From NCBI GenBank assembly GCA_963517545.1, contig CAUQGR010000001.1, positions 12,584 through 76,583 of the forward strand: DNA of 64,000 nucleotides, written 5' to 3'. Shown here in pieces: positions 25,058 to 29,231 of this stretch. This DNA is from an uncultured Streptococcus sp. (GTDB lineage: Bacteria; Bacillota; Bacilli; Lactobacillales; Streptococcaceae). A program made the position numbers and the translations under genes. Each line of letters opens with the position of its first letter. The first letter of the stretch is position 1. The notes under the pieces were generated by a model. The model was not told where the DNA came from and searched no databases. It saw only the letters and a list, made by a program, of their open reading frames with translations.

Positions 25058-25861
25058 TTATCCCAAAACCAATTCATCACTGACTAGACTTTGGCCACTA
25101 TTTTTCTGGAAGAGATGCATAAGGTCTTCAACTGTCAGATGCTTCTTCTCTTCTCCCTTGACATCCACCACTATCTTACCCTGATAGAGCATAATGAGAC
25201 GATTTCCGTACTCAATAGCATGGTTCATATCGTGGGTAATCATCAAAGTCGTCAACTGATGGTGTTCCACAATCTTTTGCGTCAAATCCATCACCATTTG
25301 ACTGGTTTTCGGGTCAAGTGCCGCAGTATGTTCATCCAAAAGCAAAAGTTTGGGTTTCACCAGAGCTGCCATGACTAGGGTCAAAGCCTGTCTTTGTCCT
25401 CCTGAGAGGTATTGAGTATCTACTTTTAAGCGGTTTTCAAGACCAATATTCAACTCCTTCAAGGCCTCTTGGAACTGGATTCTATCCTTCTCCTTCACGC
25501 CCCAACCAAGCCCTCTCTTTTGCCCACGTCTCAAGGCAATAGCCATATTCTCCTCAATCGTCAAACGAGAAGCTGTTCCCATCTTAGGATCTTGAAAAAC
25601 ACGGGCTATATCCTTGGCTCTCTTTCTTACACTCAGATTTTTAATGGATTTGCCTGCCAATAAAAGGTCCCCTTCATCCACCGATAGATTGCCAGCCAAG
25701 ATATTCATCAAAGTGGATTTCCCTGCCCCATTTCCACCAATCACAGAGATAAAATCTCCCTCTTCAACCTCTAAATCTAATCCTTTGAGGACATGGTTCT
25801 CATTGACCGTCCCTGCTTCAAATGTTTTGTGAATATTTTCAAGCGTTAACAAACTTGCCAT
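25058..25861 (-). CDS. ABC ATPase of a TrpXYZ-type amino acid importer
   Basis: GGNGAGKS, LSGGQRQ and LLDEHTAALDP. Confidence 0.9.
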   Translation of the reverse strand: MASLLTLENIHKTFEAGTVNENHVLKGLDLEVEEGDFISVIGGNGAGKSTLMNILAGNLSVDEGDLLLAGKSIKNLSVRKRAKDIARVFQDPKMGTASRLTIEENMAIALRRGQKRGLGWGVKEKDRIQFQEALKELNIGLENRLKVDTQYLSGGQRQALTLVMAALVKPKLLLLDEHTAALDPKTSQMVMDLTQKIVEHHQLTTLMITHDMNHAIEYGNRLIMLYQGKIVVDVKGEEKKHLTVEDLMHLFQKNSGQSLVSDELVLG

Positions 25862-25873
25862 AACTTTCTCCTC

Positions 25874-26767
25874 CTATTCATTTCTCAATTTCAGACCACG
25901 AATCTTTAATCTCTTTTGCAATTCTGGTGCAAATAAAACTAAGGCTAACAAGATTGCATTAAAGAGACGAACTAGATTTTGATCTAGATTTGGAATTTCA
26001 TAGATATTTAAAATAATCAAACGGTATACAATAGCACCGATTCCGATGGATAACAAGCGGCCTCCAATGGTCAAGTCGTGTATCAATACTTCCGCAATAA
26101 TCACTGCACTCAAACCAACAACAATGGTTCCTGTCCCAGAAGTCACATCTGAAAATCCATCATTTTGGGCGAACAAGGAACCACATAGGGCAATCAAGCC
26201 GTTTGAAATCATGTAACCAACAATCTTCATGGTGTCTACATTGACCCCATTGGCCTCACTCATCGGAATATTGTCCCCAGTCGAACGCAAGACCAAGCCA
26301 ATCTCTGTTTTCATCAAAAGAGTCAAGACCAAACAAACAAGTAAGAGACAGGCTAAACTGAATGAGAAAACAGCTTCTTCATTTGTCAGTCCCAAGCTCG
26401 CCAACTGTTTAAAGACAGTTGAAGAATCTCCCAAGGAAAGATTGGGCACACTTCCCATGATTTTAATATTGATCGAATAAAGCCCTGTCAAGGTCACAAT
26501 CCCTGTCAAGAGAGCTGGGATTTTCATCTTGGTGTGGAGCATTCCTGATACAAGACCTGCTACCATACCTGCCAGCAAAGCAAGTAAGGTCGCAATCCAA
26601 GGATTTGTCCCTGCCTGTATCTGAGATACGACGACAGCTGCACCCAGAGGAAAGGCTCCTTCAGCAGTCATATCCGCAATATCCAAAATACGGAAAGTCA
26701 AGTAGACCCCAATCGCCATAATCGACCACAACAAACCTTCTGATAAACTAGATAATACAAAATTCAT
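25874..26767 (-). CDS. ABC permease of a TrpXYZ-type importer
   Basis: FRILDIADMTAEG, LRSTGDN and GTGTIVVGL motifs. Confidence 0.88.
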   Translation of the reverse strand: MNFVLSSLSEGLLWSIMAIGVYLTFRILDIADMTAEGAFPLGAAVVVSQIQAGTNPWIATLLALLAGMVAGLVSGMLHTKMKIPALLTGIVTLTGLYSINIKIMGSVPNLSLGDSSTVFKQLASLGLTNEEAVFSFSLACLLLVCLVLTLLMKTEIGLVLRSTGDNIPMSEANGVNVDTMKIVGYMISNGLIALCGSLFAQNDGFSDVTSGTGTIVVGLSAVIIAEVLIHDLTIGGRLLSIGIGAIVYRLIILNIYEIPNLDQNLVRLFNAILLALVLFAPELQKRLKIRGLKLRNE

Positions 26768-26778
26768 CTTAAACCTCC

Positions 26779-27756
26779 TTATTCCTTGCCTTCTAACTTA
26801 CTAATATCAATTCCTAATGCATCTGCCATTTCTTGATTGGTATGCAATTCCAGTTTTTCAGGCAACTCAACTGCTATATTTTCTGGCTTCTCACCTTTTA
26901 AGACACGAATCAACATACGGGCTGTCTGCCGTCCCAATTCTTCATAATTGGTTCCGTAGTTATACAAGCCACCAACAGCAATCATTTCTGTTGAACCACC
27001 AAATACTGGAACCTTGTGTTTAATAGAAACCTGCTTGACTGTTTCCATGGTTGATGAAATGATATTGTCCGTTGGTACAAAAACCATATCCACTTCTGCC
27101 ATCAAGCTCTCTGCTGCCGCCTTGACGTTGTTACTGTCCAAGATTGTTTTTTCAACAACGGTAAAGCCTTTTTCTTCCAGAAGTCGCTTAGCTTCATCCT
27201 TTTGGACAACTGAGTTTGGCTCGCTCTGAGTATAGAGGATTCCAATTGTTTTAGCCTTTGGCAACACTTTCTTTATCAAATTGATTTGGGTTGAAATGGC
27301 ATCTGATGACTGATCACTTGTCCCAGTTACATTGCCCCCAGGATGTTCTCTTGACTCAACCAACTTGGCACTGACAGGATCTGTTACCGCTGAAAAGATA
27401 ACAGGTGTCGTTTGTGTTGTATTGGCCAAGCTCTGAGCAGAAGGCGTTGCGATAGCTAGAACGACATCACTAGATTCTGCTAGTTGCTGGGAAATCGTTT
27501 TTAGATTTCTTTGTTCTCCCTGTGCATTTTGCAAATCAATCTCGATATTTTTCCCCTCAACATAGCCTTGCTTGGCCAACTCATCCACAAAACCTTCTCT
27601 AGTAGCGTCTAGGGACTGGTGGGTAATAAACTGCGAAATACCGATACGAAAAACATCTTTTTTCTTGTCTGCCTTCAACTGATGCAAACTGATCAGAGAA
27701 GTCAAGAGGATCCCCACTACCAAGAGGGGTGCTAGTAATTTTCGAACAACTTTCAT
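26779..27756 (-). CDS. ABC substrate-binding protein (TrpX/ABC_sub_bind family), predicted aromatic amino acid binding
   Basis: QFITHQSLD, AVTDP, NVTGTSD and PTDN motifs; N-terminal membrane anchor. Confidence 0.85.
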   Translation of the reverse strand: MKVVRKLLAPLLVVGILLTSLISLHQLKADKKKDVFRIGISQFITHQSLDATREGFVDELAKQGYVEGKNIEIDLQNAQGEQRNLKTISQQLAESSDVVLAIATPSAQSLANTTQTTPVIFSAVTDPVSAKLVESREHPGGNVTGTSDQSSDAISTQINLIKKVLPKAKTIGILYTQSEPNSVVQKDEAKRLLEEKGFTVVEKTILDSNNVKAAAESLMAEVDMVFVPTDNIISSTMETVKQVSIKHKVPVFGGSTEMIAVGGLYNYGTNYEELGRQTARMLIRVLKGEKPENIAVELPEKLELHTNQEMADALGIDISKLEGKE

Positions 27757-27780
27757 AATGAAACTCCTTCTCAGAAAAGA

Positions 27781-27887
27781 TAATACTCAATGAAAATCAA
27801 AGAGCAAACTAGGAAACTAGCCGCAGGCTGTACTTGAGTACGGCAAGGCGACGTTGACGTGGTTTGAATTTGATTTTCGAAGAGTAT
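27781..27887 (+). repeat. BOX element (boxA-boxC)
   Basis: TAATACTCAATGAAAATCAAAGAGC...TTTTCGAAGAGTATA. Confidence 0.93.
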
Positions 27888-27892
27888 AAAAC

Positions 27893-27921
27893 AAAAAACC
27901 GCCTAGATAATACCTAAACGG
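27893..27921 (-). terminator. Attenuator terminator in the ABC importer leader
   Basis: CCGTTTAG-GTATTAT-CTAGGCGG-TTTTTT on the minus strand. Confidence 0.85.
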
Positions 27922-28064
27922 ATGCTTGAAATAATCTAACAAGTTACAACTTAGCTAGTCCATTTAGATATTCATCTATATGGACCACAATCAAAAATCT
28001 TAGCCACATAGATACAAACAAATTGCTTGAACTGTTTGCATCCATGGTGACATGTCTACAAACA

Positions 28065-28124
28065 CTATCTAAAGTAGCTAAAGTAAAAGTTTTGATTCAT
28101 TGTTACAGCTTGTCTTTTATTCAT
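28065..28124 (-). CDS. Putative Phe/Tyr-rich leader peptide MNKRQAVTMNQNFYFSYFR
   Basis: 19-codon ORF; AGAAAGCAG SD-like site 8 nt upstream; 5 Phe/Tyr codons in the last 7; alternative ATG at 28100. Confidence 0.75.
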   Translation of the reverse strand: MNKRQAVTMNQNFYFSYFR

Positions 28125-28156
28125 TTCTTTTTCTGCTTTCTTTTTTGATGTTTCCT

Positions 28157-28221
28157 ATCTTACCACCTTTTTCATCAGCTGTCAAGAATATTTCAGAATT
28201 TTTTAAAATTTTTCGAAAATT
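28157..28221 (-). promoter_or_regulatory. Promoter of the leader/ABC importer with CodY-like box
   Basis: TTGACA-N17-TAAGAT with extended TG; AATTTTCGAAAAATT at 28207-28221. Confidence 0.75.
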
Positions 28222-28251
28222 CTTTCAAAGTTTTTTTCAAATCAGTCCAAC

Positions 28252-28300
28252 AAAAAAGGTTTATAATTTCCATAAGAATTGACATGGAAATTATAAAACC
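28252..28300 (-). terminator. ami operon terminator
   Basis: 14-bp stem TTTATAATTTCCAT/ATGGAAATTATAAA followed by a T-run. Confidence 0.75.
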
Positions 28301-28304
28301 ATTA

Positions 28305-29231
28305 TTAGTTTAATCCTTGTTTGTATCGCGCCAATTCGGCTTGGTTAGCCCAAACATAGTGACCTGGACGGATTTCAACCATGGATGGTTTATCAGTCTC
28401 ATAGTCGTGTTGACTTGGGTCGTAAACCTTCAAGATCTTCTTGCGTTCCAAGATTGGGTCTGGAATTGGTACCGCTGAAAGCAAGGCTTGAGTATATGGG
28501 TGAATTGGATTGTTAAACAATTCTTCTGTTTCTGCAACCTCTACAATAACACCCTTGTAAATAACTGCGATACGATCTGAAATAAAGCGAACGACCGACA
28601 AGTCATGGGCGATAAAGAGGTAGGTCAAACCGAGCTCTTTTTGGAATTTTTTGAGCAAGTTCAAGACTTGGGCACGCACAGAAACGTCCAAGGCTGAAAT
28701 GGGCTCATCCGCAATAACAAAATCTGGTTGCATGACCAAGGCACGGGCAATACCGATACGTTGACGTTGACCACCTGAAAACTCATGAGGATAACGAGTC
28801 AAGTGCTCAGCAAGAAGCCCCACTTCACGGATAATATTTTTAACTTTCTCTTTACGTTCTTCTTCATCCTTAAATAGGCGGTGATTGTAAAGACCTTCAG
28901 AAATAATATAATCAACAGTAGCACGTTCATTCAAACTTGCTGCAGGGTCTTGGAAAATCATCTGGATACGACGAATCAATTCCGCAGCTTGTTCACGCGA
29001 TTTCTTACCATTAATCTTTTGACCGTCAAAAATGATATCACCATTACTTGTGTCATTTAGACCGATGATAGCACGACCAATAGTTGTTTTTCCACTTCCT
29101 GACTCACCTACAAGCGAGAAGGTTTCTCCCTTGTTGATAAAGAAGTTGGCATTTTTGACCGCGACAAACTTCTTACTTCCTTCACCGAAGGAAATTTCTA
29201 AATCTTTGATTTCTACTAATTTTTCAGACAT
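28305..29231 (-). CDS. amiF: Oligopeptide ABC ATPase AmiF
   Basis: GESGSGKT and FSGGQRQR; operon position. Confidence 0.95.

Follow-up and report, generated by a model that had tools for sequence, protein, structure and literature searches.

A predicted phenylalanine/tyrosine leader-peptide attenuator ahead of a PF04392 ABC importer operon in Streptococcus and its relatives

Locus layout and relation to RF02863

The window, by which we mean the complete stretch of 64,000 nucleotides of streptococcal DNA analysed here, carries on its minus strand a leader region in front of an ABC importer operon. The leader begins with a strong sigma-70-type promoter at 28157..28185 (TTGACA-17-TAAGAT with an upstream TG), which gave 10 of 12 matches in the promoter scan. 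The A-rich stretch between the promoter and the leader ORF holds the purine stretch AGAAAGCAG (28133..28141), which had originally been described as SD-like; it is present, but matches a Shine-Dalgarno sequence poorly and is distant from the ATG. The leader ORF itself (MNKRQAVTMNQNFYFSYFR followed by TAG, 28065..28124) comprises 19 codons from the ATG at 28124 to the TAG at 28067-28065, whereby codons 13-18 (28071..28088) read TTT TAC TTT AGC TAC TTT, i.e. F Y F S Y F, and constitute the control codons. Segment 1 (28066..28082), the 5' strand of helix P1, overlaps the last codons of the ORF and its stop, and the A:B hairpin (28032..28064) follows immediately 3' of the stop codon. The 5' part of the subsequent segment C (27999..28020) is a near-repeat of A and able to pair with B (28020-28007), while its 3' part (28014-27999) is the partner of segment 1 or of D. 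The D:E hairpin (27955..27988) has alternatives as well, namely D with C and E with F, and the series closes with the F:G intrinsic terminator and its U6 run (27893..27922; stem 27921-27899 with 10 pairs, then TTTTTTGTTT), the one terminator found by a scan of the leader region. From the leader ORF to the intrinsic terminator the hairpin region measures about 170 nt. Promoter, leader ORF and terminator were all found on the minus strand exactly where the original prediction had placed them.

Between the terminator and the importer ribosome-binding site lies a multicopy repeat (27783..27890, minus strand), which is outside the conserved attenuator and is missing from the locus L030, elsewhere 96% identical to the window. 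A good ribosome-binding site 3' of the repeat precedes the importer operon, which consists, likewise on the minus strand, of the genes for a substrate-binding lipoprotein (26779..27756; PF04392, E 5.9e-80), an ABC permease (25874..26767; domain match to BPD_transp_2) and an ABC ATPase (25058..25861; domain match). Upstream of the attenuator an oligopeptide-permease-type operon is located. RNA-library depth on the repeat was in the thousands versus about 55 on both flanks. Three raw-read RNA runs with the same species label placed reads on the repeat only and 0 on leader or gene, and a contig-based run showed a flat depth of about 55 over leader and gene, a profile unable to show ends or levels.

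Amino-acid sensing in Firmicute leaders is assigned to T-boxes in textbooks. In the available passages of a 2005 survey, RNA-level control by tyrosine is listed via T-boxes only (PMC1262725). The T-box model (RF00230) had no match reaching its gathering score anywhere in the 64 kb window, and it matched neither the region 27600-28400 up to E 10 nor any of 20 homologues, which bears out the claim that no T-box motif is present here; nine T-box matches were found elsewhere in the window's genome. An Rfam scan of the leader, envisaged from the outset as a check for a T-box, returned neither a T-box nor a known leader family and gave a single meaningful match, RF02863. The Phe leader and the Leu/phe leader were rejected, having no Rfam match to the window or the 20 homologues, as was the 'trpB ncRNA motif' (29 bits, E 0.07), of which only the terminator was covered.

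Rfam already lists the element under RF02863 ('Enterococcus sRNA_2410'), an sRNA whose function is unknown. The window matched this model over its full length (model positions 1-196) with 56.0 bits and E 2.7e-8, thus below the gathering score of 61 bits. Homology between the two is nevertheless clear, since relatives of the window form a continuous series of RF02863 scores from 31 to 167 bits (best 166.9) and because of the alignment; the window element and RF02863 are the same RNA family. The RF02863 consensus shares the P1, A:B and D:E helices with the window. It is filed as an sRNA gene without function, whereas the window element is read here as an attenuator, and the model begins at the Ser-Tyr codons, so that the promoter-proximal part of the ORF is omitted; its start coincides with segment 1, i.e. 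it lies inside the leader ORF. E. faecium sRNA_2410 is described as a 195-nt, Northern-validated RNA with two transcripts (Sinel et al. 2017, PMC5593968), and the passages available from that paper mention no function, leader peptide or aromatic amino acids for it. That a terminated RNA of the family appears on E. faecium Northern blots, as those passages describe, lends support to the attenuator reading. Against it counts that the RNA-seq-defined 5' end of sRNA_2410, which is the start of the Rfam model, falls within the ORF.

With respect to its distribution, the element was found by DNA search in 66 of 94 further genomes belonging to the same genus as the window, and a search with the RF02863 model detected related leaders in 85 of 151 genomes sampled across the Lactobacillales (positive in 28 of 47 genera and in 7 of 9 families, with 41 genomes above the gathering score), compared with 0 of 14 control genomes. 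Up to four copies occur per genome, each with its own operon. In a class-level sample outside the order, one further family carried the element (4 of 4 genomes), in copies with the same leader ORF, and it was not found in the remaining families of that sample.

Conservation of the leader ORF, the helices and the downstream genes

For the comparison, 27 loci at least 96% identical to the window were excluded, the core was located by an HMM built from the first matches with a cut-off of at least 30 bits, and three weak loci were dropped. An ATG ORF with an equivalent end was present in 124 of the 125 homologous elements, a set in which one site enters twice (L074a and L105) and whose members are mutually related, so that the family counts are not independent; the exception, L112, has an in-frame stop. 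The ORFs mostly comprise 17-27 codons, with a full range of 12-41. In a frame control on 117 distinct upstream regions, taking an ATG ORF of at least 12 codons as criterion, the true frame was open with an ATG in 117 of 117, compared to 1 and 0 for the shifted frames. Of 117 distinct homologues, 105 have an SD-like motif ahead of the ATG, compared with 0 of 117 for each of the shifted frames, and a promoter-like site 27-59 nt upstream of the leader ATG was present in 112 of 119 distinct homologues versus 22 of 119 shuffled controls. Judged by comparison, the leader ORF is real.

The N-terminus of the leader peptide varies freely among the homologues. Conservation of the Phe/Tyr codons in orthologues had been set beforehand as a test of the prediction, and it was evident: among 113 distinct ORFs, Phe or Tyr occupies positions -6, -5, -4, -2 and -1 relative to the Arg in 103, 112, 112, 113 and 111 cases, respectively. 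Counted over the last seven codons before the Arg, 99 of these ORFs contain five Phe/Tyr codons, 10 contain four and 4 contain six. Four leaders are all-Phe and two all-Tyr, while Trp accounts for 3 of 2383 residues, none of them within the control block. Ser and Arg are near-invariant, and a stop codon (TAG, TAA or TGA) directly follows the Arg in most copies; in one subfamily the stop lies three codons past the Arg, with the TAG inside strand A. One relative carries an in-frame 9-nt duplication (FSY) in the ORF, and in three relatives with a 1-nt insertion the stop is still located directly after a Phe. Furthermore, the residues Q-L-N before the aromatic block are kept at the peptide level, the Leu codons being CTG (38), TTG (13), TTA (7) and CTA (7).

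The pairings listed in the original prediction all exist in the window, with the single correction that B:C comprises 14 contiguous base pairs and not 15. According to RNAduplex/RNAfold the control codons pair with C over 15 bp (-16.3 kcal/mol), the A:B hairpin has 12 bp (-13.8 kcal/mol), B:C reaches -18.5 kcal/mol, C:D has 14 bp (-15.4 kcal/mol), the D:E hairpin 13 bp (-14.2 kcal/mol), E:F 14 bp (-16.5 kcal/mol) and the F:G hairpin 10 bp (-10.4 kcal/mol). The whole leader folds at -71.3 kcal/mol versus -49.5 ± 4.0 kcal/mol for 200 shuffled versions (z -5.4, 0 shuffles as good). In its MFE structure the control codons pair with C and thereby enclose A:B together with a small hairpin, while D:E and F:G form 3' of this unit; this is exactly the state that had been proposed for the untranslated leader.

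Conservation of the pairs was counted in an alignment of 109 distinct leaders, the figures from which are generous because the structures were taken from the window's alignment row and because strands of the same parity are similar to one another. For the ground state 86.1% of the cells were paired versus 31-44% with the partners slid by 1-3 columns, a value reached by 0 of 500 shuffles, and 38 of its 50 pairs change on both sides. The read-through pairings C:D and E:F together gave 76.8% versus 34-44% when slid, and B:C gave 89.8% versus 24-56%. Among the individual helices, P1 reached 97.6% and 96.3%, A:B 94.5% (11 of 12 pairs with changes on both sides) and the terminator helices 94.4% and 83.0%, with compensatory changes in all 9 pairs. 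Of 110 leaders, 35 could not be divided automatically into six strands and were left out of the duplex energies and of the folds ending after D described below. In the 75 segmentable leaders the median duplex energies were -14.2 kcal/mol for C:D (2:3) and -12.4 kcal/mol for E:F (4:5), with a z-score below -2 in 81% and 75% of them, respectively. The 124 elements yielded 110 distinct leaders with a hairpin and U run 120-185 nt after the stop. Under a loose criterion, a further U run lies behind D:E in 28 of the 124 elements, resulting in two tandem terminators, which may be the cause of the two E. faecium sRNA_2410 bands.

The first downstream gene could be assigned for 122 scorable elements, all of which lie in sense orientation 102-593 nt upstream of the putative start of that gene. 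It encodes a PF04392 binding protein in 84 cases, shikimate dehydrogenase (AroE) in 29, DAHP synthase in 5, and prephenate dehydratase (pheA), chorismate synthase (aroC), a family-3 binding protein and glucosamine-6-phosphate isomerase (377 nt away) in one case each. Thus 120 of 122 downstream genes belong to one pathway or importer family, 36 of the 122 being biosynthetic. A regulon composed of PF04392 importers together with aroE, DAHP synthase, pheA and aroC fits control by aromatic amino acids.

Attenuation model and competing readings

We read the element as a ribosome-mediated transcription attenuator that responds to the supply of charged tRNA-Phe and tRNA-Tyr, and assign a probability of roughly 0.8 to this reading, which is supported by comparison and not by experiment. 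Translation of the ORF, stalling, the order of co-transcriptional folding and the response to starvation are the parts that we infer.

According to the model, transcription would start at the promoter and a ribosome would translate the 19-codon leader. With Phe and Tyr plentiful the ribosome would reach the stop, its front edge lying over strand A, and B would pair with the A-like 5' part of C; once B:C has formed, D:E and then F:G would arise and RNA polymerase would terminate at 27893. If Phe or Tyr is scarce, the ribosome would stall on the Phe/Tyr codons, hide segment 1 and leave A:B intact; C would then be free for D, E would pair with F, the terminator would be blocked and the importer operon transcribed. 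If the leader is not translated at all, the pairing of segment 1 with C, D:E and F:G would form, and transcription would stop.

This three-state logic was compared with the footprint geometry and with folds of transcripts of different length, which agree with it in part. Assuming that the footprint reaches 11 nt beyond the first base of the A-site codon (a general figure), a ribosome at the stop would mask a median of 83% of strand A (half or more of the strand in 90 of 110 leaders), compared to a median of 0% for a ribosome on the third-last or an earlier aromatic codon. RNAfold with ribosome masks, the check suggested with the original prediction, gave a divided answer. In transcripts ending after D, stalling favours C:D, which formed in 42 of 75 leaders with a stalled ribosome, in 13 of 75 with no ribosome and in 8 of 75 with the ribosome at the stop; counting any leader in which D paired with C for at least one stall codon, the figure rises to 57 of 75. 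For the window itself the C:D value of this transcript was already 0.93 without a ribosome. The full-length MFE, on the other hand, does not switch: the terminator is kept in 94 of 110 leaders with no ribosome, in 90 of 110 with a stalled ribosome and in 96 of 110 with the ribosome at the stop. Stalling removes it from the equilibrium fold in only 7 of 110. With the terminator in the MFE in nearly all ribosome states, a purely thermodynamic switch was rejected. Since the full-leader equilibrium fold does not switch, read-through would have to be kinetic. In classical attenuators, read-through is a kinetic outcome of the order of synthesis. For the window transcript ending after F the pairing of F came out as predicted, namely 0.40 without a ribosome, 1.00 at 4 of 5 stall codons and 0.40 with the ribosome at the stop, but across the family this test was noisy, with 8 of 110 members fitting and 4 of 110 showing the full pattern.

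The conserved Q-L-N is neither needed nor explained by classical attenuation and keeps an arrest-peptide component alive. The Q-L-N nascent chain may delay the ribosome at the aromatic codons or halt it there and thus make the element a hybrid of attenuator and arrest peptide, and the Phe:Tyr codon ratio may be matched to the specificity of the controlled gene. That the leader is, taken together, a tunable sensor of two amino acids with a contribution from the peptide itself appears rather unlikely to us; it would then also be, to our knowledge, the first tyrosine-reading leader peptide. Lower still we rate a pure arrest peptide, in which the nascent chain of QLNN, aromatic block, Arg and stop would stall the ribosome from within the exit tunnel and so set the RNA fold, possibly in response to free Phe/Tyr, by analogy with TnaC and free Trp. 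Such a peptide would account for the retention of Q-L-N through four synonymous Leu codons, also in the one family outside the order, and for the near-invariant Ser and Arg with the stop directly behind the Arg in most copies. The Ser and Arg codons, however, both lie inside helix P1, which explains their conservation at the RNA level. Copies without QLN moreover exist in the same genus (e.g. MNQNFYFSYFR and HTYFYSYF), Phe and Tyr interchange at every aromatic position up to the all-Phe and all-Tyr versions, and one subfamily tolerates three extra codons behind the Arg. Finally, an importer or a biosynthetic gene should respond to a lack of the amino acid, although a TnaC-like sensor could be wired oppositely.

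Very improbable, compared to the attenuator, is the view that the family acts mainly in trans as a small RNA, as Rfam files it, with a secondary link to the downstream gene. A stable RNA of about 195 nt with two bands in E. faecium (PMC5593968, available passages) would suit this view, and trans-acting sRNAs derived from attenuators are known, such as rnTrpL (PMC6614838). The uniform sense orientation and spacing of all 122 scorable elements, the downstream genes coming almost without exception from one pathway or importer family, the separate operon for each of up to four copies per genome and the conserved ORF and promoter argue against it; an additional role in trans could coexist with attenuation. 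Equally little credit is due to direct sensing of aromatic amino acids by the three-way junction of P1, A:B and the small hairpin, be it as a riboswitch or as a protein- or tRNA-binding domain with an incidental ORF: the junction and its surroundings show very high sequence conservation, the Rfam consensus is a compact junction and the SD of the window is weak, but neither the outcome of the frame control nor the restriction of second-codon-position variation to that between Phe and Tyr would be expected for a non-coding aptamer, T-box features are absent, and the fact that every strand has a choice of two or three partners accounts for the strong conservation of the junction.

Importer specificity, known systems and biological meaning

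The importer had originally been called TrpXYZ-type, of which the membership in the PF04392 family holds, whereas the residue pair typical of a tryptophan binder does not. The closest solved structure to the binding protein of the window is CD0873 of C. difficile (E 6.5e-68), followed by VC_1101 and SP1069, which bind tyrosine, phenylalanine and tryptophan, respectively (PMC6816091). Selectivity in these proteins was ascribed to Glu-263 of CD0873, which is Ala in VC_1101 and SP1069, and to the position of Tyr-279, where the Trp binder has Gln and where a Tyr blocks tryptophan; Ala-268/Gln-284 of SP1069 is the pair that admits tryptophan (PMC6816091). At the positions of Glu-263 and Tyr-279 the window protein has Ser-255 and Tyr-271, and the combination of a small residue with Gln is absent from it. 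Among 65 regulated binding proteins the position of Tyr-271 is occupied by Tyr in 63, by Phe in 2 and by Gln in 0. A second PF04392 gene of the window's genome, on another contig, encodes a 38% identical protein with Ala/Gln as in the Trp binder, and this gene lies directly behind a T-box of 112 bits. Because Tyr-271 stands where Tyr excludes tryptophan in the solved relatives, the window importer is probably a TrpXYZ paralogue, most likely for Phe and/or Tyr. In one genome with two tandem units an all-Phe leader is combined with Ala as selectivity residue and an all-Tyr leader with Ser, and over the 65 binding proteins the leaders average 4.25 and 3.8 Phe codons where the selectivity residue is Ala or Phe, respectively, and 3.5 Tyr codons where it is Glu.

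In its proposed mode of action the element resembles the phe, his and trp leaders of enterobacteria but is no sequence member of those families. The Phe leaders of E. coli pheA and pheST consist of a Phe-rich short ORF, alternative hairpins and an intrinsic terminator. They share with the present element the amino-acid logic and the control of Phe-related genes, whereas the present leaders mix Phe with Tyr codons, mostly target an importer and have their control codons at the extreme 3' end of the ORF, as part of a helix strand. The enterobacterial his leader, with seven consecutive His codons, has in common the chain of six segments (1:2, 3:4, 5:6 versus 2:3, 4:5); it differs in amino acid and lineage and has no extra A/B decoy module, which is a feature of the window element. 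In the E. coli trp leader segment 2 itself lies under a ribosome that has reached the stop, and the antiterminator is thereby disabled. The three outcomes (no translation, ribosome at stop, ribosome stalled) would be common to both systems, but in the window the ribosome at the stop would uncover B, which captures C, so that the route would be an indirect one via a duplicated strand, A resembling the 5' part of C.

Closer to the Lactobacillales, the Leu/phe leader RF01743 is likewise a leader-type cis-regulator of the same order, listed for L. lactis only in the accessible text of Weinberg et al. 2010 (PMC2864571), and as noted the window and 20 homologues do not match it. The uORFC-13-1 motif upstream of aroF in Acholeplasma (24 representatives) was proposed to be a Phe-codon uORF beside a terminator, with a U run encoding at least one Phe (Brewer et al. 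2021, PMC8632094). It resembles the window family in combining a Phe-codon uORF and a terminator ahead of DAHP synthase, but differs in motif and lineage and, as far as the available passages describe it, has no Tyr codons and no importer. S. suis trpXYZ is reported to be under T-box control (PMC9382623); importer family and premature termination in the leader are the same as in the window, but in the passages at hand uncharged tRNA-Trp is sensed directly by the RNA, with no ORF. Leader peptides in Firmicutes are documented for histidine in the parts available of PMC2965389 and PMC9413887.

In the full-text literature searched, neither a description of the element as a leader peptide nor the string YFSYFR was found. 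Panina et al. 2003 (FEMS Microbiol Lett 222:211) reportedly described a candidate signal upstream of DAHP synthase/shikimate kinase genes in Streptococcus and Lactococcus, which may bear on priority.

If the attenuator reading is true, a classical leader-peptide attenuator for Phe/Tyr would be common across the lactic acid bacteria, and an aromatic regulon would join the shikimate pathway to an importer family of poorly known specificity. The Rfam 'sRNA' RF02863 would have to be re-read as the terminated product of this attenuator. For dozens of PF04392 binding proteins, whose relatives in pathogens are under study as fitness factors and vaccine antigens according to the available passages (PMC6816091, PMC9382623), a testable call of specificity for Phe/Tyr and not Trp would follow. 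The A/B/C decoy, finally, would represent a compact way of converting the position of a ribosome at the stop codon into an RNA fold.

Serial terminators

In 28 of the 124 elements a U run follows the D:E hairpin upstream of the F:G terminator when a loose criterion is applied, as for example in the homologous loci L058, L060, L078 and L080, whose D:E hairpin is the equivalent of window positions 27955-27988. On the basis of sequence, D:E with its U run followed by F:G (27921-27899 plus U6 in the window) constitutes two predicted terminators in series. In E. faecium (PMC5593968), Northern blots of sRNA_2410 (RF02863, the same RNA family as the window leader) display two bands, which may originate from two such serial terminators.

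Sequences flanking the element

Upstream of the leader promoter, positions 28215-28300 gave weak, sub-threshold matches to the streptococcal sRNA families Srn266 (26 bits) and Spd-sr37 (17.5 bits). These matches coincide with the hairpin closing the upstream oligopeptide-permease operon and probably represent merely the terminator of this operon.

Between the F:G terminator and the importer RBS a multicopy repeat is located on the minus strand (27783-27890), for which the depth in RNA-library reads and contigs reached thousands compared to about 55 on either flank. Many of the reads from this repeat continue into another repeat module, which is missing from the window, and L030, a locus 96% identical to that of the window, is devoid of the repeat. 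Presumably it resembles the BOX element of mitis-group streptococci. Read-through transcripts would carry the repeat inside their 5' UTR. A second case of an insertion at the same spot is L044 (G149:C1), in which additional sequence is inserted 3' of the terminator and the distance from leader stop to importer gene amounts to 593 nt.

Variation of the leader ORF

A Q-L-N motif at codons -10 to -8 before the near-invariant Arg codon that ends the aromatic block is kept in 62-80 of the 113 leader ORFs, including most non-streptococcal copies, and its Leu codon can be CTG, TTG, TTA or CTA. Judged from these ORFs, the motif appears to be under selection at the peptide level, for which the classical attenuation model offers no explanation. 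The control region of L023 (G131:C2) contains a tandem duplication of 9 nt that preserves the frame and inserts an additional F-S-Y, resulting in …NFYFSYFSYFR and in a longer strand 1, the 5' strand of helix P1. In L112 (G259:C5) the RNA core is conserved, yet the aromatic block is interrupted by an in-frame stop, and this copy may be a decayed leader.

Leader codons and importer pockets

The genome of the window harbors a second PF04392 importer gene (L163, contig C76:166-1491) directly behind a T-box match of 112 bits, and its binding protein carries the pocket residues Ala/Gln, the same pair as in the tryptophan binder SP1069. In L091 (G233:C14) two units of leader and binding protein are arranged in tandem, with the elements 1.4 kb apart. 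The all-Phe leader (…NNFFFFSFFRYRL) precedes a binding protein with Ala at the pocket position (Ser-255 in the window protein), and the all-Tyr leader (…HNYYGYYR) one with Ser at this position. The two units provide a natural test pair for codon-specific sensing.
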